DNA of 19,916 nucleotides from Candidatus Hydrothermarchaeota archaeon (lineage in GTDB: Archaea; CAYFZR01): NCBI GenBank assembly GCA_046760505.1, contig JBHIEG010000028.1, forward strand, positions 1-19,916. The letters run 5' to 3'. Below are positions 512 through 14,579 of the stretch, one piece after another. A program made the translations under genes and the position numbers. Position 1 is the first letter of the stretch. Each line of letters opens with the position of its first letter. Under the pieces are notes generated by a model that was not told the origin of the DNA, did not search any database, and was given only the letters and a program-made list of their open reading frames with translations.

Positions 512-1642
512 ATGATAAAGCCCCACGGAGGAAAGTTGATAAATAGGGTCTTCAGAGAAAAGGAAGAAGAGGCAAGGGAACTTCACAGGATAGCGATAAG
601 GAGAGATCAGGCAAAAGATGCTGAAAACATAGCAAATGGCGTTTTCTCCCCCTTGGAAGGCTTTTTAAATCAGGAGGATTATAAGAGCGTTCTCTATGAA
701 AAGAGACTTGCGAATGATATTCCATGGACCATTCCCATTGTACTGGATGTTTCCGAAGAAGATTCTAAGAAAATAAGTGAGGGAGAAGATTTAGCATTAA
801 CGTACAAGGACAAAATTGTGGCGATCCTCCATTTGGAAGAAAAATATGATTATGATAAGAAAGAGTTCGCTGAAAAGATATTCGGAACCGATGATAAAAA
901 TCATCCCGGCGTGAATAAAGTTTATGAAATGAAAGAAGTTCTTCTAGCAGGAAATATAGATCTTATAAGCGAGACAGACAATCCCTTTCTCAAATATACC
1001 CTGAAACCCATAGAAACGAGAATACTGTTCAAGGAGAAAGGATGGAAAACAATCGCGGGTTTTCAAACCAGAAATGTACCTCATTTAGGGCATGAATACG
1101 TTCAAAAGACCGCTTTAACATTTGTGGATGGAATATTCATAAATCCCGTGATAGGAAAAAAGAAAAAGGGAGATTTCAGAGATGATGTCATCCTTGAAAC
1201 CTACGAAGCGCTTATAAATAATTATTATTTGAAAGACAGCGCTGTTTTAAGCATTCTACAGTTCGAGATGAGATATGCAGGTCCAAGAGAGGCAATATTC
1301 CATTCTATTGTAAGAAAGAACTTTGGATGCACCCATTTCATAGTGGGAAGAGATCACGCGGGAGTAGGGGATTACTACGATCCCTATGAGGCTCAGGAGA
1401 TATTTAATGAGTTTCCGGATCTGGGTATAGTTCCTATTTTCTTTAAATCCTTCTTTTACTGCAAGAGATGTTCTGGCATAGCAAATGAAAAAACATGTCC
1501 GCATGATGAAAATCAACGCATAAAGTTCAGCGGAACAAGGATAAGAGAGGCTATTTCAAAAAAGAAGATTCCTCCAAAGGAATTGATGAGAAAGGAAGTT
1601 GCGGAGATAATACTTAGAAAGAAAAATCCTTTCGTGGTCTGA
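512..1642 (+). CDS. sat: Sulfate adenylyltransferase (ATP sulfurylase, Sat type)
   Basis: N-terminal PHGGKL, FSPLEGF, FQTRNVPHLGH (QxRN and HxxH), VGRDHAG, and a CKRC...CPH zinc site. Confidence 0.97.
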   Translation: MIKPHGGKLINRVFREKEEEARELHRIAIRRDQAKDAENIANGVFSPLEGFLNQEDYKSVLYEKRLANDIPWTIPIVLDVSEEDSKKISEGEDLALTYKDKIVAILHLEEKYDYDKKEFAEKIFGTDDKNHPGVNKVYEMKEVLLAGNIDLISETDNPFLKYTLKPIETRILFKEKGWKTIAGFQTRNVPHLGHEYVQKTALTFVDGIFINPVIGKKKKGDFRDDVILETYEALINNYYLKDSAVLSILQFEMRYAGPREAIFHSIVRKNFGCTHFIVGRDHAGVGDYYDPYEAQEIFNEFPDLGIVPIFFKSFFYCKRCSGIANEKTCPHDENQRIKFSGTRIREAISKKKIPPKELMRKEVAEIILRKKNPFVV

Positions 1643-2599
1643 ATGAAAAGAACTCTAATAATTCATCACTGGGACACAGATGGGATATGCTCTACTGCTT
1701 TACTTTTAAACTATCTTAAAGGATATATAAAAAACACCACTCCTGAAATAGGAAATTATTTTCTAAGAGATTCAGAGATAGAGGAATATGAAGATTATGA
1801 ATCCATAGTAATAGCCGATATAAGTATTCCGAGAGAAGACGTTCTGAAGATCAAAGAGAAAACAAACGCAGATATCATGATATTCGATCATCATTTGCAA
1901 GAGGAGATCAAGGAAGTATTTCATTGCAATCCTATTTTGAGAGGAGAGAGTCCGGAGATATATCCATCCACATCATGGGTGATAAACGATTATCTTAAAA
2001 ATCCTGTAAGCCTTCTATCGGTTCTCGGAGCGGTGGGAGATGCTGGAGAGAAGATAAGGGAAAATGAGTTCATCTTTCAAAAAATAAGGGAAAACATCGA
2101 TTTAAGATTTGAAGATCTGCTAAAAATGACAGAGCTAATAGATTCTAACTACAAGATTAATGACAGAAAGGGAGTAGAGAATGCGGTACATTATCTTTTA
2201 AAGAATATTAATCATCCTGAAAGAATTTTAGAAAATAGAGAATGGAATAAGAATCTAAGAAAAATAAATGTGGAGATTCAAAAGATCTTGGAAGAGCCCT
2301 CTCTATTCGAGGATGATTCTCTTATTCTTAAAGAATTTGAATCTGATTACAGCATAATTTCTTCTATAGCGAGAAATCTAGCATGGAACGCAAAAAAGAC
2401 AGCTATTGTCATCAACAAAGGCTTCTTCAAAGATAGAGATCAGATATATGTGAGAGGCGATGGATGTTTAGATAGAATTTTAGAGTTAGCAAGGGAGAGA
2501 GGCTACTCTTCTGGAGGAAAAAAGGAAGTAGTGGGTATAGTTTTGCCTAAAGAAGAATCTGAGAAATTTCTGGATAAAATACTGGAGGAACTGAGATGA
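1643..2599 (+). CDS. DHH family phosphoesterase (possible PAP phosphatase)
   Basis: DHH motifs HHWDTDG, IADI, FDHH and GAVGD; degenerate DHHA1-like SGGKKEVVG; starts immediately after the sat stop codon. Confidence 0.85.
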   Translation: MKRTLIIHHWDTDGICSTALLLNYLKGYIKNTTPEIGNYFLRDSEIEEYEDYESIVIADISIPREDVLKIKEKTNADIMIFDHHLQEEIKEVFHCNPILRGESPEIYPSTSWVINDYLKNPVSLLSVLGAVGDAGEKIRENEFIFQKIRENIDLRFEDLLKMTELIDSNYKINDRKGVENAVHYLLKNINHPERILENREWNKNLRKINVEIQKILEEPSLFEDDSLILKEFESDYSIISSIARNLAWNAKKTAIVINKGFFKDRDQIYVRGDGCLDRILELARERGYSSGGKKEVVGIVLPKEESEKFLDKILEELR

Positions 2600-3960
2600 G
2601 GGTTTTAGTGATAGGCCTGGACTCTGCTCCCCCGGAGCTGGTATTCGATGAATTCATAGATGAGCTTCCCAACATAAAGAAAATGGTTGAAAATGGTATT
2701 TATGGTAAATTAGAGAGTATTCATCCTCCCATAACAATTCCTGCATGGATATCCATGGCAACAAGCAAGAGTCCTGGCAAACTGGGACTCTACGGATTCA
2801 GACACAGAAAGAATTACTCTTATAAAGATATCTGGATTGCAAATTCCCATTCCATTAAAGAAAAAGCGATCTGGGATATTTTAGCAGAGCATGATAAAAA
2901 ATCCTGTTTGGTAGGAGTTCCTCCAAGCTATCCTCCCAAAAAAATAAACGGCTGGTTGATATCCTGCTTCATAACTCCTGATACAAAAAAAGATTATACC
3001 TATCCTAAAGAATTGAAAAGAGAAATAGAGAGCCTGGTGGGAGAATACATCGTAGATGTTGAATTTAGAACCGATGAAAAGGATAAACTGCTGAAAGAAA
3101 TCTATGAAATGACAGAGAAGAGATTTGAGGTAATTAAATATCTCCTGCAAAATAAAGACTGGGACTTCTTCATGTTTGTGGAAATAGGCTTGGATAGAGT
3201 ACAGCATGCATTCTGGAAGTTCTTTGATAAGGAGCATCATCTCTATCAGAAAAGCGAATACGAAAACGTAATTAAAGACTACTACAGGTATCTGGACAGA
3301 GAAATTGGAGATCTTCTTTCTATAGCAAGGGATGCCATTATATTAATTGTTTCTGACCATGGCGCAAAAAGAATGAAAGGTGCTTTTTGTATAAACGAGT
3401 GGCTGATAGAAAAGGGATATCTAAGGCTAAAGAACAAGCCAGATAGAATCATAAGTTTGGATAAGGCAGAGATAGACTGGAAAAATACAAAAGCATGGGG
3501 CTGGGGCGGTTATTACGCGAGAATTTTCTTGAATGTGGAGGGAAGAGAGCCTCAGGGAACAATAAAGCCCGCTAGTTATGAAAGTTTCAGAGATGAAATT
3601 GCAAGGGAAATAATGAATATAAGAGACTCGCAGGAAAATCCCATGGATAATAAGATTTTAAAGCCAGATGAGATTTTTGATGAATACAACGGAGACTATC
3701 CGGATCTCATGGTTTACCTCGACGATTTATACTGGAGATCAGCCGGCACGATAGGACATAATTCCTTATATTTAAAGGAAAACGATACAGGTCCTGATGA
3801 TGCGGTTCACTCTGCGCATGGAATTTTCATAATATACGATCCAAGGAAGAAGATCGGAAAAGAGGTTGATGCAAGCATACTGGATATTGCTCCCACGATT
3901 CTGGATCTCATGGGAATACCTGTTCCCCGTGATATGGAAGGTAGCATTATAAGGGTGTAA
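2596..3960 (+). CDS. Alkaline phosphatase superfamily protein (type I phosphodiesterase/nucleotide pyrophosphatase family)
   Basis: VLVIGLDSA, PPITIPAW (Thr nucleophile position), DRVQH, VSDHG, DAVHSAHG, SILDIAPTIL and DMEG. No signal peptide. ATGA overlap with the DHH gene. Confidence 0.9.
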   Translation: MRVLVIGLDSAPPELVFDEFIDELPNIKKMVENGIYGKLESIHPPITIPAWISMATSKSPGKLGLYGFRHRKNYSYKDIWIANSHSIKEKAIWDILAEHDKKSCLVGVPPSYPPKKINGWLISCFITPDTKKDYTYPKELKREIESLVGEYIVDVEFRTDEKDKLLKEIYEMTEKRFEVIKYLLQNKDWDFFMFVEIGLDRVQHAFWKFFDKEHHLYQKSEYENVIKDYYRYLDREIGDLLSIARDAIILIVSDHGAKRMKGAFCINEWLIEKGYLRLKNKPDRIISLDKAEIDWKNTKAWGWGGYYARIFLNVEGREPQGTIKPASYESFRDEIAREIMNIRDSQENPMDNKILKPDEIFDEYNGDYPDLMVYLDDLYWRSAGTIGHNSLYLKENDTGPDDAVHSAHGIFIIYDPRKKIGKEVDASILDIAPTILDLMGIPVPRDMEGSIIRV

Positions 3961-3963
3961 GAA

Positions 3964-4491
3964 ATGGAAAAGGGATTTGTCATATGGCTCACAGGACTTC
4001 CTGCATCAGGCAAAACCACCATAGCAAGAGAATTAGAGAGTATTTTGAGAGATAAAGGAATTAAAGTAGAAGTATTTGATGGAGACGAGGTAAGAAAAAA
4101 ATTGAGCCCTGACTTAGGATTCAGCAAGAGAGATAGAGAAATTCATGCGAAAAGAGTGGCTTATGTCAGCAAACTTCTTGCCAGAAACGGTGTGGCAGTA
4201 ATAGTTGCTCTAATATCTCCATACAGAAAATTTAGAGAAAATGCAAGAAAGGAAATCGGCGATTTCATAGAGGTTTACGTGAAATGCTCTCTCGAAACAT
4301 GCATGAAAAGAGATCCCAAGGGTATATTCAAAAAGGCGTTGAGAGGAGAGATAAATAATTTGACAGGAGTCCAAGATCCCTATGAAGAGCCTTTGAATCC
4401 TGAAGTAACAGTTAATACAGAAGTAGAGACTCCTGAAGAAAGTACAATGAAAATAATAGAGAAACTCAAGGATCTTGGATATCTGGAGTGA
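3964..4491 (+). CDS. cysC: Adenylyl-sulfate (APS) kinase
   Basis: WLTGLPASGKTT P-loop, DGDEVR, LGFSKRDR, ISPYR, RDPKG and TGVQDPYEEP. Confidence 0.97.
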   Translation: MEKGFVIWLTGLPASGKTTIARELESILRDKGIKVEVFDGDEVRKKLSPDLGFSKRDREIHAKRVAYVSKLLARNGVAVIVALISPYRKFRENARKEIGDFIEVYVKCSLETCMKRDPKGIFKKALRGEINNLTGVQDPYEEPLNPEVTVNTEVETPEESTMKIIEKLKDLGYLE

Positions 4492-4495
4492 TGAA

Positions 4496-5284
4496 ATGGA
4501 TCCTGCTCACCTTATCATCGGCTTTGTAGTAGGCTTCTTGATAGGTCTTAGCGGAGTTGGAGGAGGAGCAATTTTAACTCCTCTACTAATTTTTTCCGGT
4601 GTTTTGCCGATGTATGCGGTGGGCTCTAGTCTGGTATATGCATCTCTTACAAAGAGCCTCGGCTCCGTATTGCATCATAGAAAGGACAATATAGAGTTCA
4701 GTACGGTTAAGATCCTACTCTTAGGAAGTGTTCCTGCCTCATTTTTAGGCATACTATTGCTCAACTACCTCAAAAGTAAATTTAGCTTCCAGTTCCTCAA
4801 CGCATTCATAAGTTCCTTGCTGGCCATAATTTTGATTCTGGTGGCAATCATATATTTCTCACAGATAATGGGGAGTGGAATTAAACTGAAGAATCCTTCT
4901 AAGAAGAAACTGATTTTAGCCGGCTTTATAGTAGGAATAACCGTTCAGCTAACATCTGTTGGAAGCGGAGTCTTGGTAACGTTGTTTTTGCTTCCCATTT
5001 TAGTTCCCAGAAAGGTGGTGGGAACCGATGTATTCCATGCATTCGTGCTGACAAGTTTCGCAGGTATGATGCAATTTGGCATTGGAAACGTGTTGCCCTC
5101 TCTGGTTCTTGTGCTTCTGATCGGATCGATTCCAGGAGTAGTAATAGGCGTGAGTCTGAGCTCCAGAATACCTATAAAGCCTTTTCATATAATTCTAACC
5201 TTTGTGATATTTTTCTCTGGATTGCTTTTGCTCCTGAAGAACTTTGGCTTCATCATGGTTACAGATTTCTTGCAGGAGAAATGA
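4496..5284 (+). CDS. TauE/SafE (TSUP) family sulfite/organosulfur transporter
   Basis: Duplicated motifs GLSGVGGGAILTP and TSVGSGVLVT, VVGTD, and many hydrophobic segments. Start moved from TTG 4475 to ATG 4496, which follows SD GGAGTGA and removes the overlap with cysC. Confidence 0.88.
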   Translation: MDPAHLIIGFVVGFLIGLSGVGGGAILTPLLIFSGVLPMYAVGSSLVYASLTKSLGSVLHHRKDNIEFSTVKILLLGSVPASFLGILLLNYLKSKFSFQFLNAFISSLLAIILILVAIIYFSQIMGSGIKLKNPSKKKLILAGFIVGITVQLTSVGSGVLVTLFLLPILVPRKVVGTDVFHAFVLTSFAGMMQFGIGNVLPSLVLVLLIGSIPGVVIGVSLSSRIPIKPFHIILTFVIFFSGLLLLLKNFGFIMVTDFLQEK

Positions 5285-7032: not shown

Positions 7033-7890
7033 TCATTCAACGTTTATCCAGAGATGAGTTTCGCGATAGGGTTCGGTAAAATTATTCTCTTTGTATAGTA
7101 AAAACTCCAACTTCAAATCCTTACCTTTTTTATTGGGAGTAAATATAATGGGCTCCTCGAAAGTCTCGTTGTGGTCTAGGCGCAGGGTTTTCTCAATTAA
7201 AGTTTCGTTGGATAGTTTTATTCTGAGCGTATAGTTGATCGTTTCGTATTCATGATTTACTATGCCCAGTATAACCTTTCCGGAATCTCCTAACTTCAAT
7301 TCAGTTGGATAATTCTTAGCAGATCCGTTTGGACCTAAAATGTAAAATTCCGTAAATCTTTCTCCTTTCTTTGGAGTTACAATAACGTATGCAAGCATGC
7401 ATACCGCTAAAAAGATGGAAATGATGAGAAAGATCGTCAGTATCTTGTCTACCTTACTTTTAGGCTTCTCAAAGATCTCTGCCTTAAATGATTCATAGAT
7501 CTCTTTAAATGGAACAAAAAATCTCTCCTCCTCTGGGAGTTTTAGTCTCCTTAGATGCGCGGTTACCACAAGCGCTAGGGTGAATACGGATAGAGTAACA
7601 ATTATCGGAATCAGTCTAATACCGAAGGGCGTGTAGTTTAAAACCAAGCCGAGCAATGGAACAACCGCTATGCTAAGTCCAAAACTCAAGGCAAATCTCT
7701 CTATTCCATCTAGATCTCCTTTTCTTGGAAATAAGGATGCTATCAATGCATATCCCGGCAGAAAAAGGACCATCATTATTCCAAGAATCACCCTGACTGG
7801 AGTCTTATTCAAGGGGGGAACGAGTACAAAGAGGAGTGTAAGTAGTACAAGCGCGGTTACGATTTGCAGATCTTTTGGAATCTTGAGCAT
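7033..7890 (-). CDS. DUF1616 domain membrane protein
   Basis: LFLPGYALIASLFP, ERFALSFGLSIAVVP, ERFTEFYILG...NYP, GIVNHEY and PYRETHLWINV are characteristic of archaeal DUF1616 proteins. Confidence 0.9.
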   Translation of the reverse strand: MLKIPKDLQIVTALVLLTLLFVLVPPLNKTPVRVILGIMMVLFLPGYALIASLFPRKGDLDGIERFALSFGLSIAVVPLLGLVLNYTPFGIRLIPIIVTLSVFTLALVVTAHLRRLKLPEEERFFVPFKEIYESFKAEIFEKPKSKVDKILTIFLIISIFLAVCMLAYVIVTPKKGERFTEFYILGPNGSAKNYPTELKLGDSGKVILGIVNHEYETINYTLRIKLSNETLIEKTLRLDHNETFEEPIIFTPNKKGKDLKLEFLLYKENNFTEPYRETHLWINVE

Positions 7891-8303: not shown

Positions 8304-8873
8304 CTAATCTCTTGTCTTTTGAATTATCCTATCTAACAGTTTTATCTCCTTTTCAGCGAAAAAAAGCGCTGTGTCATGGGCTTCTTCTACATTTTGCGTT
8401 ACAGGGGTACAAATCTGAATCATCATGCTGTACTTAAAGCTCGGAAGAAAGAATAAAACCTTGGATCTCCTCTCAAATATATTCAAGTACCATGCTATAA
8501 CCCATCTTTTTTCTCCGTTCTTTTCTACCAAAAGTTTCATCACATTTCTATCGTGGTAGATGGTTTTTTCTTTCGTTAATATGTTCCATCCGGCCAGTTT
8601 ATAGCATGTATACGGGTCCTGCAAACTTTTAAGCCCCCTACCTTTATAAAGCGCTATCCATGTCTTCACATCCTTGGATGTATACTGTTTTACGGCTACA
8701 GATTCTTTTTCTGATAGGGTAGACTCCCTGAATCCTGTTATAGTTGGAAACAACTCTTCCGATTTAAGCTCTGGAATTGAATCTCTTGGGAGAGGCTTTT
8801 GAACTATTAAAGGTATCCAAGACAGTATAAGTATGGTTAAGACAAGCAAGGCGTATCTCTGCTCTTTATTCAT
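8304..8873 (-). CDS. Exosortase-associated EpsI family protein (stand-alone)
   Basis: N-terminal TM, WIALY, and LQDPYTCYKLAGWNI, which matches the EpsI H-x-P-x-x-C-Y-x-x-x-G-W motif with the His lost. VIAWY follows. Overlaps the exosortase stop. Confidence 0.72.
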   Translation of the reverse strand: MNKEQRYALLVLTILILSWIPLIVQKPLPRDSIPELKSEELFPTITGFRESTLSEKESVAVKQYTSKDVKTWIALYKGRGLKSLQDPYTCYKLAGWNILTKEKTIYHDRNVMKLLVEKNGEKRWVIAWYLNIFERRSKVLFFLPSFKYSMMIQICTPVTQNVEEAHDTALFFAEKEIKLLDRIIQKTRD

Positions 8874-9657
8874 GGGCGAGCACCCTCAAATAAACTATCA
8901 TCAGGATCATGAACATTAACCAGCCTCCAAATATGTGAAACACTCCTTGAGCCAAGTGCATATTGTTTAGTGCTATCAGCAAGATCAGCATTAGTCTCAT
9001 GACATTAATTGCAGGTATGAGTAAGAGTATCGAAAGGCTTAAAATAGTTTTTCTCTTTAGGCTTTGGAGAGGTAAAAGAAAGATAAACGCTGTAAACACA
9101 AAAAAAGGTATCAGGATCTCTCCGCTACTGCAGAGAGGAGTTATATAGAACATAGGCACTCCTTCGTTGAGTATAACCGTATCTTTTAGAGATAGATCAG
9201 TACCCAATCCATTTAATATGTCGATGGCTAAGTTAGCCTCTAAAAGTGATAGTTTGGCTCCAAAATAGGTTATCACGTAGTAGTTTGGTGGTATTAAAAA
9301 TATTAAAAAGAGTATTGAAGGAATTGCTTTTTTTACCTTTTGAACAGGATAAAAGAGCAGTAAATAGCCAAATATGAAAGCCATTAGAGACAGAATCATT
9401 ACTTCCATCGAGAGATAGAACAGATTATACCTGAGAAAAGAGACAAGTACCAGTAAAATCAGACCCGCTACCCTGAAAAATTTTTCATTTTCACAGGGGA
9501 TTTTCCATCTTTCTTTAAATATAATAAAGGACATTATGGGCACCAGGATGCCGTGCCTTGACCACGGATCTTCGTACCAAATTGATAGAAGGCGAAAGAT
9601 CTCACTGCCGAAAAGAGGAATCAATGCGAGAATAAATACTGCATTTATGAATCGCAT
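8866..9657 (-). CDS. Exosortase/archaeosortase family transpeptidase (EpsH-like)
   Basis: WYEDPWSRHGILVP N-terminal motif, FLIFLIPP, and a catalytic triad context of PLCSS (Cys), INVMRL (Arg) and VFHIFGG (His). Start moved from 9852 to ATG 9657 to remove the overlap with the CPBP gene. Confidence 0.88.
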   Translation of the reverse strand: MRFINAVFILALIPLFGSEIFRLLSIWYEDPWSRHGILVPIMSFIIFKERWKIPCENEKFFRVAGLILLVLVSFLRYNLFYLSMEVMILSLMAFIFGYLLLFYPVQKVKKAIPSILFLIFLIPPNYYVITYFGAKLSLLEANLAIDILNGLGTDLSLKDTVILNEGVPMFYITPLCSSGEILIPFFVFTAFIFLLPLQSLKRKTILSLSILLLIPAINVMRLMLILLIALNNMHLAQGVFHIFGGWLMFMILMIVYLRVLAHE

Positions 9658-9682
9658 ACCGAGTAACTCTGTGTAGGATAAC

Positions 9683-9697
9683 TCTATAAATTTCTTT
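9683..9697 (-). promoter_or_regulatory. Internal BRE/TATA-like promoter upstream of the exosortase
   Basis: The minus strand reads AAAGAAA-TTTATAGA. The TATA box (9690-9683) starts 33 nt before ATG 9657. Confidence 0.45.
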
Positions 9698-10535
9698 ATA
9701 AAAATTTGTGATACGGGAGCATCTGAAACAACACCATGTTCACCATGAAGTGAGCGGCTATGGGAGTCATCAGACTTCTCGTAACATAAAAAATAATTCC
9801 AAATACTATTCCTACGTAGAATGTAAAAGCGATCTCCATGGAACTTAGCCATATGCTGTGCATGCCGCTGAATATAATGCTTGTCAATATGATTGCATAG
9901 AAAGAATCCGTAACCTTCAGTGCATTCGAGAGAAAAATCCCCCTGTATAGAAGCTCTTCTGTGAACCCAAGCATGAAAAATGTAGATACAGATACGAACG
10001 GATAGTAAGGTAAGACCTTTCCGGGAGAGAGTATTAAAAATTCAGTTATTCCAAGTATGGCTCCGAGTATCAGACCCAGGACAATGTTTTTCACGAAGTT
10101 TTCTCTGATCAGCCCTAGATCCCTAAGATCAAAGCCCTGATGATAGGCAAGGATCATGGAGGCTGGCAGCAGTATGGAATATGTTATCTGAAACTGATAG
10201 TGGGTCAGGAATAGATTTAAGGGAAGTCCGGAATTTACCAGACGGAGTAATGCGAAGAGTATAAAACTCTGAATTACGAGAACGATATTTCTTTCATCTA
10301 TAAAGAGAGGAGAAAGCACTGCGAGGATTATGAGTGCTACATACGCTACTATGCCCCAGTAGGTTGAGTGGTAGGAATAAATGCCCTCGCTGGATAGGAG
10401 AAACAGCGTAAATATCAATGGATACTTCATCTTGCTTAGGTTAAATCTTTCTAAGGAGAGATATTTAATAGCCAGTACAATGCAGGAGATTATTATAAGT
10501 ATATTCAAGATTAATACGGGAAAGCCGATGTTCAT
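9696..10535 (-). CDS. CPBP (Abi/type II CAAX, Rce1-like) intramembrane glutamic endopeptidase
   Basis: Three CPBP motifs, TEELLYRG (EExxxR), FSGMH (FxxxH) and AHFMVN (HxxxN), in a multi-TM protein. ATGA overlap with the 791-aa gene. Confidence 0.92.
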   Translation of the reverse strand: MNIGFPVLILNILIIISCIVLAIKYLSLERFNLSKMKYPLIFTLFLLSSEGIYSYHSTYWGIVAYVALIILAVLSPLFIDERNIVLVIQSFILFALLRLVNSGLPLNLFLTHYQFQITYSILLPASMILAYHQGFDLRDLGLIRENFVKNIVLGLILGAILGITEFLILSPGKVLPYYPFVSVSTFFMLGFTEELLYRGIFLSNALKVTDSFYAIILTSIIFSGMHSIWLSSMEIAFTFYVGIVFGIIFYVTRSLMTPIAAHFMVNMVLFQMLPYHKFL

Positions 10536-12907
10536 TCTTCCTCATCTCCCATCATGGCATAATTCTTGATGGCATAAATCGTGATGACAAATACAATCAG
10601 TGCGAGCGTAACCATTACCTTTAATGATCGAATTTTATCTTTGAGACTCGATAGATCATCTTTGGCAAATGATATTGTAATCTCAGCGTAATCATATGCA
10701 CGTTTAGCCTGAAGTTTGGAATCTGAATACAGGTGTGCCATGTACAGCGACCTTGCCTCGCTTTCATACTCTCTAGCCCTCTTGTAAAGGGACATCAGGT
10801 GATCCATGTCCTCCTTATCGGACTTGATCCAGAGGAACTCTACACTCTCCAGTTCTTTTATCAGATCACCTGCCTCTTTCAGCCTTTCCTCACATGATTT
10901 CAAATATTCCAATGCGGGTTCCTTTTCCTCAATTTCCTTCTTTCTTTCAATGTAACTGTACCTGTTTTCTGCAAGCGTTAAAAGCACGCTTGAAGAGTTC
11001 AAGAAGGAGTTTGCCCTGAGGAATTCTCCTTCAGAATATGCCTTTCTCGAGTCCTCCAACATCTTTTTGCTTAGATACAACAGTTCACTTGCATGGAGGG
11101 CGTCCGGGGATTTTATATAAGAAAGTTTATCTTCCAGCTCCAGGATCTCTTCCTCATTTTTTTCAATGCTTTTTGGAATTTTTTCTTTTATATAAGATAA
11201 TTTTTCGGTTTGTTTTCTTTTAAGTTCTGCCTTTCTTGTTTCCTGTATCCTTGCAATCTTTTTAAGTTCGTCATTGTAGTCTATTCTCAATGTTATATTG
11301 GTGGGAGATGTAAATTTATAGTAGAAAACGTCTTTTCCATCCTCTTTATATTGATACGCTGGAGGAGGAGAAGCTTTTTTAAGAATCAAACCTTCTGGAA
11401 GTTTTACTAAAATTTCAGCAAGAAAAACCTCTCTATTCAGAGCAGGTTTCAGGTAGAGGTAGTAATCAAAATCGCTCACTCTATTTATAAGATCTTTTGT
11501 ATAGGTCTCGATGGTATATCTGTATCGCCTTGTGTGCCTTACTGGCTCTCTAAAGGATGTTTGTATCAGGCTACCTTTGTCTTCCGGGATTACATTAAAT
11601 TTTAACGGCCCGTAGCGATCATATATCGCGAAAGAATTGGTGCTTCCCAGATTAAGATATATCCTGTCGTGGGTTATGTATGAAAAAGAGACATTGTTCT
11701 CGTATACTATGGTTCCGGTGAAATGGCAGGTTCCCGCCCCGGTTACATCAACGGTAAAGTAGACATTTGGATAGAAACCCTCTGAGCTTATGGCATGGGC
11801 TGGCAGCATTAATGCGAGAAGCAGAAACCAGAACCTCTTTCTAAAAAGGAAATAGAATATCAGCATCGTGAGTAGGGGTAGAACAGTGCCCATCGGGACA
11901 AATGGAACTGGAGGAATCACCTCTGGTTTGGTATAAACTTTTGCCCTCTTGATTTTCTCTCTCAAATAATCTAGAAGAAATGTCGCGGTTCTATTACTCT
12001 TGCGTATATCCACCGTCCATTTGCTCACCTCAGTAATTGGCAATTCAGTTTTAGGTATACTTACTTCGATGCTCTTTTCTCCCCATGAGATTGATGAACA
12101 CGATGCTAAACCGCTAAAATATGTTTTGTTCCATTTATACAATCTAAAAGAATCTCTTTCATCGATTTTAATCATGTAATCTGCTCCCATGGATGGAGGC
12201 TCCTCTCCGCTTGCTGATGTTGGCATCAAGGAAAGTGAGAATCCTGTTTTATTAGAGGAATCAGCATCGATCCATATGGTAAATTGCTTTGAGTAGGGCA
12301 GTGATTTCTCTATATCGCCCTCGGTTACGATCTTATAGTGCACGGTATCGTTCCCCTCAGATAGATATGAATTCACTATGTTTGATTCTGCAGGCGGCTT
12401 TTTTACATCCCCATCTTTGATAGAAGTTTTCCAGACCGGGGTTATGTTTTTTACAGATAGTTTTTCGATTTCTCTTCTATAATCAAAAAAATAGGCATTT
12501 GGGCGATTATACCTATCATATACAAAAAAAGGATAGAGACCATCTTCTTTTATGGAGGAAAGTTCAAATATAAGGATATATGGCTGAAGAGCCTTTAATT
12601 TTTCTAATTGAATGGAATAAGCCCTTTCCGCATGGAGTAATTTTGGCGTGATATTTAGAACCCTTATATCAATCCTCTTGGCATCAATGTCATAGGCTCT
12701 GAAATTCCTCGCGTATAAATTCTCAGAGAGTTCTATGGTTATGTTCTCCTTTTCCAAGTTTATGTCAGAGGTTAGAGTCACCATAGTACTTACAATAGGT
12801 CTTTGATCACTTGCTTTTTGGTCCGTGCATAAAATACTGGTCTGCGCGAGAGCAACGGGTAAAAGAAGTGCGATCAAGGTTACGAATGTTACATTTTTCA
12901 GAACCAT
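10532..12907 (-). CDS. Large bipartite exported/membrane-anchored protein: DOMON-like N-half, internal TM-RKR-signal peptide, C-half paralogous to the upstream gene
   Basis: 791-aa ORF with N-terminal signal peptide (LLPVALA), a WIDADSSNKTG...GADY...IEVSIP segment, an internal double hydrophobic segment at aa 330-372, a helical/coiled-coil region and a C-terminal TM. Confidence 0.8.
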   Translation of the reverse strand: MVLKNVTFVTLIALLLPVALAQTSILCTDQKASDQRPIVSTMVTLTSDINLEKENITIELSENLYARNFRAYDIDAKRIDIRVLNITPKLLHAERAYSIQLEKLKALQPYILIFELSSIKEDGLYPFFVYDRYNRPNAYFFDYRREIEKLSVKNITPVWKTSIKDGDVKKPPAESNIVNSYLSEGNDTVHYKIVTEGDIEKSLPYSKQFTIWIDADSSNKTGFSLSLMPTSASGEEPPSMGADYMIKIDERDSFRLYKWNKTYFSGLASCSSISWGEKSIEVSIPKTELPITEVSKWTVDIRKSNRTATFLLDYLREKIKRAKVYTKPEVIPPVPFVPMGTVLPLLTMLIFYFLFRKRFWFLLLALMLPAHAISSEGFYPNVYFTVDVTGAGTCHFTGTIVYENNVSFSYITHDRIYLNLGSTNSFAIYDRYGPLKFNVIPEDKGSLIQTSFREPVRHTRRYRYTIETYTKDLINRVSDFDYYLYLKPALNREVFLAEILVKLPEGLILKKASPPPAYQYKEDGKDVFYYKFTSPTNITLRIDYNDELKKIARIQETRKAELKRKQTEKLSYIKEKIPKSIEKNEEEILELEDKLSYIKSPDALHASELLYLSKKMLEDSRKAYSEGEFLRANSFLNSSSVLLTLAENRYSYIERKKEIEEKEPALEYLKSCEERLKEAGDLIKELESVEFLWIKSDKEDMDHLMSLYKRAREYESEARSLYMAHLYSDSKLQAKRAYDYAEITISFAKDDLSSLKDKIRSLKVMVTLALIVFVITIYAIKNYAMMGDEEE

Positions 12908-12908
12908 A

Positions 12909-14345
12909 TCATCCCTCTTTAATTTTTTCTTGGATCTTGGAGATTTTTTTATCGATTTCTTCCAACCTTCTCTCGTACTCCTCCTTGGATATCAGTTTTC
13001 TCTCATAGTCCTTGGATACTTTGATATACTCTTCCCTAAGCGACTCCAATGCTTCTGAGGGCTCTTCCATGCCAGAAATATAATCATAAAACCGGGAGAA
13101 TCTAAAGGCTATGTTCTCTTTGAATATCGCAAACACTCCTGCAAGAAGAATTACTCCGATTCCTAAGAGTGTTAATCGAACCATGGATTCTTTCCGTCTA
13201 ATCTCTCTGTCAGCAAGTGCAATAGCCTTAGAAGCATATTCCCAGGATTTTTTTGCCTCTACATTTGCTAAAAGATATTTTTTATTTTGGAGTGCTTTTT
13301 TCGCACTTTGATAATGGAGTTTTGAAGAGGAATATTCTTTGTTCACCCCGGTTACATTGGGCTCGATCCAGAGAAATCCATTCAGATGATCAAGTTTTTT
13401 TTCTATACGTCTCAAACTTTCATTAGCCATCTTTAGGTACATCAAACTAGATTTCAGAGCCTCTTTCTCAGTTTTTTGATTAAATTCTTCCAATTTGATT
13501 TGAATAGAATCAATCAAACGTGTCGATGATAACAGATAAGCCTCAGCGCTGTCAAAATCAGATTTTTTTAAATAGGACTGAGACAGTGCCAGCATTTCTT
13601 CTGCCTTATCTAAACACTCTAAGTACAGATCAACATTTCTCTCAACTTCTTGGAGTTCTGATGCAAGAGTCCTGAGACCGTTAATCCTCTCAATTTGGTT
13701 GGATATGTTTTGCTCTAACTCCAACGTTTTGGGCTCTGGGGGATTAAGTATCTTGGTGCCTCCTTTCTCACGGTTGTAGTGTATTGATATCCTTGTAAGA
13801 TCCGACATGGGCTTCAAATCATAGAAGAAGACAATTCTCTTTCCCTCTTTATATATCCGCTCTGGATCGGGTGAATAAGACCTGTACCTTGCGTTGTAAG
13901 GCAGTCTTATGAGTACATCAAGATCAGATACAGGTATTCCCTCGATGGTGCCGAATGTAAGGTTGAAGACGTATGAAAAAGTTCCAGTCTTGGTAACCAG
14001 TCCCTTTGAATAAAATTTCACCGTGTATCTTAAAACTTCTTTCGCAACGTCTCTTCTAAACTTAATGTCTATTGTTGATATATCTCCTTTTCTGATATCA
14101 TAATCAAAGGGTCCTTCCTCGCTTAATATTTCAACGTACCAGATTTCATCCACATTTAAGAATACAGTATCCTTGGTTGCGATTGTTTCATACTGAAGGT
14201 TGGAGTATGTAACGTTTAATACTATATAGGCAATTTCTTCCTCCAAAAGATCACAAGTTACCTTTATCTCCGGATGTATTCCAGAATAGCCCTGAACAGT
14301 AGAGAGAAGAGCGAGCATCATCAGCATCATAGCAATAAGTCTTAT
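12909..14345 (-). CDS. Exported beta-domain plus helical-stalk membrane protein with cytoplasmic SHOCT-like tail
   Basis: Signal peptide ending STVQG, TM LTLLGIGVILLAGVFAIF and tail LISKEEYERRLEEI. The ORF track starts at ATG 14330, but the SD position favours the in-frame ATA at 14345. Confidence 0.75.
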   Translation of the reverse strand: MRLIAMMLMMLALLSTVQGYSGIHPEIKVTCDLLEEEIAYIVLNVTYSNLQYETIATKDTVFLNVDEIWYVEILSEEGPFDYDIRKGDISTIDIKFRRDVAKEVLRYTVKFYSKGLVTKTGTFSYVFNLTFGTIEGIPVSDLDVLIRLPYNARYRSYSPDPERIYKEGKRIVFFYDLKPMSDLTRISIHYNREKGGTKILNPPEPKTLELEQNISNQIERINGLRTLASELQEVERNVDLYLECLDKAEEMLALSQSYLKKSDFDSAEAYLLSSTRLIDSIQIKLEEFNQKTEKEALKSSLMYLKMANESLRRIEKKLDHLNGFLWIEPNVTGVNKEYSSSKLHYQSAKKALQNKKYLLANVEAKKSWEYASKAIALADREIRRKESMVRLTLLGIGVILLAGVFAIFKENIAFRFSRFYDYISGMEEPSEALESLREEYIKVSKDYERKLISKEEYERRLEEIDKKISKIQEKIKEG

Positions 14346-14579
14346 GGTCGAACCTCCCCTGAGTTATCTTCTACCGTGAAATTTAAAAATTCTTCCATGA
14401 GCCACTGGATCTTTCGGCTATGAAGAAAAATATTACCTTAAAAACTTTGTCATCGGTAAAAATGTTGTATCCGCAAAATAATTAAATTGATTAAGAAATT
14501 CAAATAAAGGAGATAAACGACGGAGATAAATTGAGGGAAAGATAGTTAGAAATGAGAGTTTACATTAAAGGTGCTTGAG

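Follow-up and report, generated by a model that had tools for sequence, protein, structure and literature searches.

The window analysed here is an entire 19.9-kb contig (19,916 nucleotides, nt) of a metagenome bin from Candidatus Hydrothermarchaeota archaeon, a bin of 142 contigs and 2.17 Mb with a completeness of 100 and a contamination of 5.67%. Our subject is an open reading frame (ORF) of 791 amino acids (aa) on its minus strand (10532..12907), which translates without a stop and in whose middle a segment built like a C-terminal protein-sorting signal is followed at once by a segment built like an N-terminal signal peptide. This fusion ORF belongs to a tight minus-strand operon that runs from a 473-aa gene through the 791-aa ORF to the genes of a CPBP protease, an exosortase, an EpsI-like protein and a DUF1616 protein. 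It was compared with the rest of the window's own genome (G000) and with a sister species of the same genus (G001); in the collection searched, the phylum consists of these two genomes.

Hydropathy marks four apolar segments in the 791-aa protein, at residues 6-21, 330-355 (with a transmembrane (TM) core at 339-355), 359-370 and 764-780. The protein opens with a predicted signal peptide (aa 1-21; 12845..12907, minus strand, as are all features of this ORF), in which inspection and hydropathy show a Lys at position 4, the apolar run 6-21 and a closing A-L-A. The N-half cargo domain follows (aa 22-329; 11921..12844), an orphan that is beta-rich in prediction and carries seven N-x-T sequons. The central part, aa 330-372 (nt 11920-11792), reads as the initial annotation had quoted it: retranslation gave the identical sequence, free of stops, with a Pro-rich signature motif (aa 330-340; 11888..11920), a TM helix placed by hydropathy (aa 341-355; 11843..11887), the basic cluster RKR (aa 356-358; 11834..11842), and a signal-peptide-like h-region of 12 apolar residues whose c-region ends in A-H-A (aa 359-372; 11792..11833). 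RKR lies between the second and third apolar segments and A-H-A (370-372) closes the third, which has 12 apolar residues compared with 16-17 in the other three; this second hydrophobic stretch of the junction ends in Pro-Ala-His-Ala. We infer that RKR has two functions, closing the sorting signal on the cytoplasmic side and providing the n-region for a second signal peptide. The remainder, the C-half (aa 373-791; 10535..11791), is paralogous to the upstream gene over its full length; a beta sandwich and a helical stalk are predicted in it, and a TM anchor lies at its C-terminus (aa 764-780; 10568-10618, by hydropathy).

The integrity of this junction was followed in four public runs of one hydrothermal-vent metagenome study, whose per-run contigs were placed on 10400-14400. 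In every run nt 11792-11920 are spanned by a long record (record 8 of X1, 9 of X2, 10 of X3 and 12 of X4); the bridging records are 9-26 kb long, and the word depth at the junction is 20-35. The contigs of the four runs show no indel across the whole placed region and no substitution within 11792-11920. Because one run may be the source of the window, their independence amounts to three further samples of one study. Fifteen variable sites were listed, nine of them inside the fusion ORF (five synonymous, four non-synonymous, no stop). The concern raised with the initial annotation, that the join might be an artefact of assembly, is not borne out by these indel-free bridging contigs, and the artefact was rejected.

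The first of the two central segments has a counterpart at a genuine C-terminus. With the N-half (358 aa) as query against both genomes, one match was found in the sister species, over residues 323-355 only (39% identity, E 0.0017); a second match, in the window's own genome (G000:C4), is not significant (E 0.065). The sister-species match is formed by the last ~35 residues of an ORF cut by a contig end and comprises a Pro motif, a TM helix, a basic tail and a stop, which falls 6 residues past the last basic residue and gives the signal a true C-terminal position. The two signals have 12 invariant columns out of 44 and share the signature PPxPxxPxGTxxPL directly before the TM helix; the cargo that precedes them is unrelated. 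In the window the tag is not C-terminal, with 433 residues beyond RKR and 419 beyond A-H-A. The tripartite, CTERM-like segment described at the outset (Pro motif, TM helix and basic cluster) therefore stands, as it is homologous to a C-terminal signal. The tagged ORF of the sister species (on contig C29) overlaps the start of a DUF3485/EpsI gene (Pfam 36.8 bits, cut-off 26.1). At this overlap (G001:C29; L011 1468-1475) the stop of the tagged cargo gene runs into the start of the EpsI-like gene, whose product has a basic n-region and then a hydrophobic helix at its N-terminus. Were a few nucleotides deleted, or the frame shifted, at such a stop/start overlap, a fusion like that in the window would result.

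The genome was also searched for further signals of the VPF/VP-TM-RKR type, as the initial annotation had proposed, and no second copy was found in G000. Three regular expressions were run over its 20,835 six-frame segments: the two strict ones match the window only, and the loose one matches six places, of which only that in the window was judged a signal of this kind. A degenerate DNA pattern gave one match in G000 and five in the sister species; of these five, two contain an in-frame TGA on our own reading, two fall within a Pro/Thr-rich ORF and are not followed by a TM helix, and one is the C29 signal. Against the curated NCBIfam CTERM models, three cut-outs of the two signals gave no family at E<=10 and the whole protein gave none at E<=0.01. 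From the sequence comparisons we conclude that aa 330-358 form a real, so far unclassified exosortase-type signal, with one substrate per genome, which in G000 is internal.

The second segment has its own relatives. The upstream free-standing paralogue (12909..14330, minus strand), a protein of 473 aa, is composed of a signal peptide, a beta domain, a long helical region, a TM helix and a cytoplasmic tail. BLASTP of aa 373-791 against it gave 25% identity over 412 columns (E 2e-22), with residue 5 of the query opposite residue 17, so that the full-length alignment begins right past the hydrophobic N-terminus of the upstream protein. Three further free-standing paralogues were found, one elsewhere in the same genome (G000:C38) and two in the sister species, and the free-standing copies have an initial Met followed by a hydrophobic stretch, and a small-x-small site ahead of Y-S-G. 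When the five paralogues are aligned with MAFFT, A-H-A of the fused copy shares its columns with V-H-A, V-Y-A, V-H-G and V-Q-G of the free-standing four, two additional residues follow the site in the fused copy, and the h-region columns of that copy coincide with the N-terminal signal peptides of the others. The earlier claim that the sequence after A-H-A matches the mature N-terminus of the upstream protein is upheld by both the BLASTP and the five-way alignment, and the h-region and A-x-A site are supported by positional homology to the signal peptides and predicted cleavage sites of the paralogues. A signal peptide for the Sec pathway and type I signal peptidase has a positively charged n-region, an h-region of about 7-15 apolar residues, and small residues at -3 and -1. 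Here these are RKR, the 12 apolar residues 359-370, and A-H-A, but the signal is internal, starting at residue 356 of 791. Four matches to type I signal peptidase (TIGR02228) are present in G000, three of them over the cut-off. Judged from the alignments, the downstream part is evidently a formerly independent gene, complete with the core of its signal peptide.

Downstream in the operon, a CPBP (Rce1-like) intramembrane protease is encoded (9696..10535, minus strand; PF02517, 59.8 bits, cut-off 22.4), the start of its gene overlapping the stop of the fusion ORF by 4 nt. It is followed by an exosortase/archaeosortase-family protein of 263 aa counted from the Met at 9657 (8866..9657, minus strand), which scores 104.4 bits with PF09721 (cut-off 25.7) and 34.7 bits with TIGR04178 (cut-off 23); no exosortase subfamily model (XrtA, XrtD and others) exceeds its cut-off. 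This is the single exosortase gene of G000, two genes downstream of the fusion ORF. Residues C176, R221 and H241 are invariant in an alignment of three exosortases, and we take these Cys, Arg and His columns to be the catalytic ones. The ORF as mechanically called runs 65 codons upstream of the conserved Met (9658-9852, minus strand), reaching into the end of the CPBP gene; this extension is probably untranslated because the sister-species orthologue starts at the conserved Met. The operon continues with an EpsI-like (DUF3485) protein (8304..8873, minus strand), whose Pfam score of 23.4 bits is under the cut-off of 26.1 and which is 33% identical to the EpsI homologue of the sister species (E 1e-42), and with a DUF1616 membrane protein (7033..7890, minus strand), the final gene of the conserved block, which follows the exosortase in the sister species too. 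The exosortase is very isolated: a database of 5.8 billion proteins holds three relatives, at 100%, 82% and 25% identity. Metagenomes of the Joint Genome Institute (JGI) gave 225, of which the 80 kept are all 23-30% identical, so there are no close kin among them. A regular-expression scan of these 80 bacterial loci (0.70 Mb) for an internal PEP-like signal and an h-region behind it found none, alongside four canonical tails, and is no test of how frequently the layout recurs.

The sister species has an orthologous CPBP-exosortase-DUF1616 block, its exosortase 82% identical to that in the window, with a tRNA-Arg upstream in place of the cargo genes. The idea that a remnant of the fused gene persists there was rejected: the conserved part consists of about 19 nt ahead of the CPBP start, which on our own reading are the translation start region of the CPBP gene, and the rest is tRNA-Arg and spacer. 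Directly upstream of that block (G001:C71; L013 1-250), two tandem elements of ~90 nt with an internal hairpin precede the tRNA-Arg(GCG). The CPBP gene is conserved beside the exosortase in both species and should therefore have some role in the system. The described CPBP-type sorting enzymes act on signals with an invariant Cys, as presented in the passages cited (PMC11980579). The tag of the fusion ORF has no Cys, and for this reason we favour the exosortase as its sorting enzyme; of the two enzymes proposed earlier, the adjacent exosortase or the CPBP protease, the former is the likelier. As a separate observation, a 386-aa multihaem c-type cytochrome (L028 199-1359, plus strand; G000:C6:42598-43758) has a C-terminal tail made up of Cys-Gly-Pro, a TM helix and KRRK. 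As it contains a Cys, this tail might be acted on by a CPBP-type sorting enzyme; none of the CTERM models matches it over the cut-off, the best being Heimdall-CTERM with 13.8 bits against 24.

How widely is the fused form found? The N-half finds only itself, both in a phmmer search of aa 1-372 against 1.84 billion representatives and in a word-based search restricted to proteins of 435-1385 aa, and since these searches gave no homologues, fused and split forms could not be compared through it. Relatives were searched in 61 genomes (60 relatives and G000) at E<=0.001. Five genomes matched, G000 included, and outside G000 all matches are to the C-half only. One match overlapping the junction, in genome G015, was rejected as spurious, being the antisense strand of an unrelated 278-aa ORF. 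The conservation that the initial annotation looked for is seen in the parts, with the Pro motif in the sister species and the A-H-A columns in the paralogues, and not in the fused form, which is confined to a single species. The seven N-x-T sequons of the N-half amount to 2.3 per 100 aa compared with 0.41 genome-wide; relative to the genome background the density is 5.6-fold in the N-half and 1.9-fold in the C-half, and its increase in both fits a location of both outside the cell. An AlphaFold prediction of the N-half, made without an alignment, is beta-rich and has an unusable mean predicted local distance difference test (pLDDT) of 39.9. In the ESM Atlas the best score was 0.83, with query-normalised template modelling scores (TM-scores) all below 0.5 and one row at 0.64 by target length; the resemblance to Glucodextran_C-like beta sandwiches suggested by these models is a weak lead.

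Taking these results together, we consider it reasonably probable, from the sequence, that in the 791-aa ORF two adjacent surface-protein genes of this uncultured vent archaeon have naturally fused in frame, and that the product is processed into two surface proteins. The fusion, the junction and the homology of each module are observed; the topology, the two cleavages, their order and the anchor would be as follows. Sec would insert the chain with both large domains outside and RKR inside, the tag helix and the 12-residue h-region forming a hairpin across the membrane and the third helix anchoring the C-terminus. Signal peptidase I would cut after A-H-A, and the co-encoded exosortase would cut at or near the Pro motif and probably transfer the N-half to a membrane anchor. 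The outcome would be two surface proteins and a hairpin peptide of ~35-40 residues remaining in the membrane. A precedent for the exosortase cut is HVO_0405 of Haloferax volcanii, described as a strain-specific case in which an ArtA substrate has been joined to a NifU-domain gene, so that its PGF signal lies centrally (PMC6098224, PMC7157517). Its N- and C-fragments were detected in vivo in an ArtA-dependent manner, according to the parts cited (PMC7157517, PMC6098224). It had been proposed for the window that signal peptidase first releases the C-half and leaves the N-half with a newly C-terminal sorting signal. This order is not needed: the HVO_0405 experiments indicate that a central signal is cut without a prior downstream cut, and because ArtA cuts that signal in vivo, an earlier cut by signal peptidase is not required here.

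Other explanations should be weighed against processing into two surface proteins. An error of assembly or sequencing, that is, a lost stop codon or a chimeric join, might be expected of a metagenome bin in 142 contigs with an estimated contamination of 5.67%, but contigs from four samples cross 11792-11920 at the lengths and depth given above with no indel, joint or substitution, and this explanation is hardly credible. It is also very improbable that the C-half is translated separately from an internal start at Met339, Met348 or Met366, so that the locus would hold two overlapping genes. Three in-frame ATG codons are indeed present in the junction, but inspection found no purine-rich, Shine-Dalgarno-like motif 5-10 nt before any of them, whereas the CPBP gene has GAGGAAGA directly before its ATG; separate initiation is unlikely for this reason and, as no stop codon intervenes, ribosomes coming from the N-half would read through anyway. 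An alternative that carries more weight, although we still hold it to be unlikely, is that the protein stays whole or is cut only once, either as a three-helix protein with a linking hairpin or after an exosortase cut that leaves the hairpin on the C-half. The topology is self-consistent without any cleavage (signal peptide, domain, TM helix, RKR inside, TM helix, domain, TM helix), and in the sources consulted internal cuts by signal peptidase are documented mainly for viral polyproteins. However, 12 apolar residues ending in Pro-Ala-His-Ala have the length and shape of a cleavable signal peptide rather than of a TM helix and are positionally homologous to the signal peptides of the paralogues; the tag, in turn, has a terminal homologue in the sister species, and its cognate exosortase is co-encoded.

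Several facts weigh against the processing we favour, or speak for the possibility that the fusion is a recent accident, neutral or mildly harmful, with an unstable or non-functional product at a decaying locus, or do both. The fusion is seen in a single species population, and neither the N-half nor a fused gene is present in the sister species, so that the fused state is not evidenced as selected. The N-half is an orphan among the 1.84 billion representatives. Four of the nine single-nucleotide polymorphisms in the ORF are non-synonymous, which does not clearly indicate purifying selection. In the passages cited, uncut full-length HVO_0405 does not accumulate, which is ascribed to instability (PMC7157517), and fusions of this kind may be tolerated accidents. 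The signal itself fits no curated CTERM model, its motif definition is thin because only two examples are known, and the exosortase has just one close and one distant relative in 5.8 billion proteins. Against an accident, the frame is intact in all four runs, every signal is intact, and the protein is the sole candidate substrate of an otherwise complete and conserved exosortase/CPBP/EpsI set; a decaying locus seems to us quite improbable. We also considered a stronger form of the processing proposal, in which a dedicated maturation system has a single substrate and this substrate is a polyprotein. It would yield, in a 1:1 ratio, a heavily N-glycosylated, exosortase-anchored outer protein and a membrane-anchored stalk made of a beta sandwich and a helical bundle, as a two-part surface structure. 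The cuts by exosortase and signal peptidase would flank the TM hairpin, with the CPBP protease clearing or processing the hairpin remnant. We regard this form as rather improbable; if true, it would be the first case in cells in which envelope components mature from a polyprotein through the action of two membrane proteases, with a new class of archaeal sorting signal.

Fused substrates with internal sorting signals are already in print, and the 791-aa protein resembles them in part. As in HVO_0405, a gene fusion has put a complete tripartite signal in the middle of a protein and is limited to one strain or species. HVO_0405 has a PGF signal and ArtA, with cleavage shown in vivo, whereas for the 791-aa protein the motif is unclassified, the exosortase is very divergent and cleavage is predicted. 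The C-terminal part of HVO_0405 is a NifU domain, which on our own reading, beyond what the cited passages state, is cytoplasmic and has no signal peptide; that of the 791-aa protein is itself a predicted exported protein with a signal-peptide core directly after the basic cluster, which implies a second protease, signal peptidase. MXAN_5598 of Myxococcus xanthus carries an internal MYXO-CTERM signal and its N-terminal part is proposed to be processed and anchored; in the same source, sorting tags are stated to work mid-protein (Guo, Haft and Wall, 2025; PMC11980579). That case is bacterial and is presented as a proposal only, with an invariant-Cys tag cut by a CPBP myxosortase after lipidation and no second signal peptide described in the passages cited, whereas the 791-aa protein is archaeal and its tag has no Cys.

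In its components the system is like the canonical PEP-CTERM/exosortase and PGF-CTERM/archaeosortase A systems, with a predicted N-terminal signal peptide, a tripartite tag, a multi-pass PF09721 Cys enzyme and an EpsI-like partner. An EpsI-like partner is known from XrtA systems. Unlike in the canonical systems, the tag is internal and matches no curated model, each genome has a single substrate instead of many, and a CPBP gene is conserved beside the exosortase. Internal signal sequences cut by host signal peptidase are a feature of the envelope polyproteins of flaviviruses and bunyaviruses. If cleaved, the protein of the window would resemble these in having a stop-transfer helix, a short cytoplasmic basic loop and a short re-initiating signal with a small-x-small site, after which the next ectodomain is released; unlike them, it is the product of a cellular archaeal gene, its upstream cut would be made by an exosortase and not by a viral or host protease, and there is no homology. 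What is new here is an archaeal fusion with a secreted C-terminal partner, a new tag motif, a very isolated exosortase and an internal signal that, by our searches, is the only one of its genome.

Another question concerns what the C-half and its relatives are. A model of the C-half built from the five-paralogue alignment (mean pLDDT 80.7) predicts a beta sandwich at about residues 6-172 of the half, long helices and a TM anchor. Searched with Foldseek against the PDB, it best matches chains of human and yeast oligosaccharyltransferase complexes (E 1e-11 to 1e-8, TM-score ~0.33), presumably the ribophorin I/Ost1 subunit; the N-domains of M1 aminopeptidases are also among the best matches, with a TM-score of only ~0.3. 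Pfam gave nothing above noise on the five paralogues, Ribophorin_I included, and the oligosaccharyltransferase-like fold suggested by the model is to be taken as a lead only. A word-based search for longer homologues of aa 373-791 returned only the query itself and is too insensitive for paralogues of 25% identity. The third paralogue (L002, G000:C38; L008, G001:C41) has a conserved neighbourhood: it adjoins a secreted protein of ~420-440 aa that contains a coiled coil as well as a C-terminal TM helix, and on the other side a 235-aa ORF whose product is hydrophobic near the N-terminus and includes a coiled-coil region. This suggests that the lineage has a family of membrane-anchored surface stalks. 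In a distant archaeon (G025:C114; L005 889-1977, minus strand) the same beta domain is joined to a TM helix and a cytoplasmic domain that by eye is DNA-binding-like, and the beta domain may therefore also be used as an extracellular sensor module. Beside the operon, on the plus strand (512-5284), lies a sulfate-activation cluster with genes for an ATP sulfurylase, a DHH phosphoesterase, a type I phosphodiesterase-like protein, an APS kinase and a TauE exporter; as a speculation, it could supply sulfate for surface glycans.

The value of the case is limited in that Haloferax already provides proof of the principle, the fusion is confined to one species and the processing is predicted. It nevertheless brings to light a new signal motif and a very divergent exosortase/CPBP/EpsI set in a phylum of which the collection searched contains two genomes. 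The C-terminal fragment is large and, if released, could serve as a convenient reporter for the activity of an otherwise intractable exosortase, as in the case of HVO_0405. If the protein is processed as proposed, this would be an archaeal case in which one gene gives rise to two surface proteins by means of two unrelated membrane proteases and, if this is true, searches for sorting signals that are restricted to C-termini miss real substrates, here the only one of the genome.

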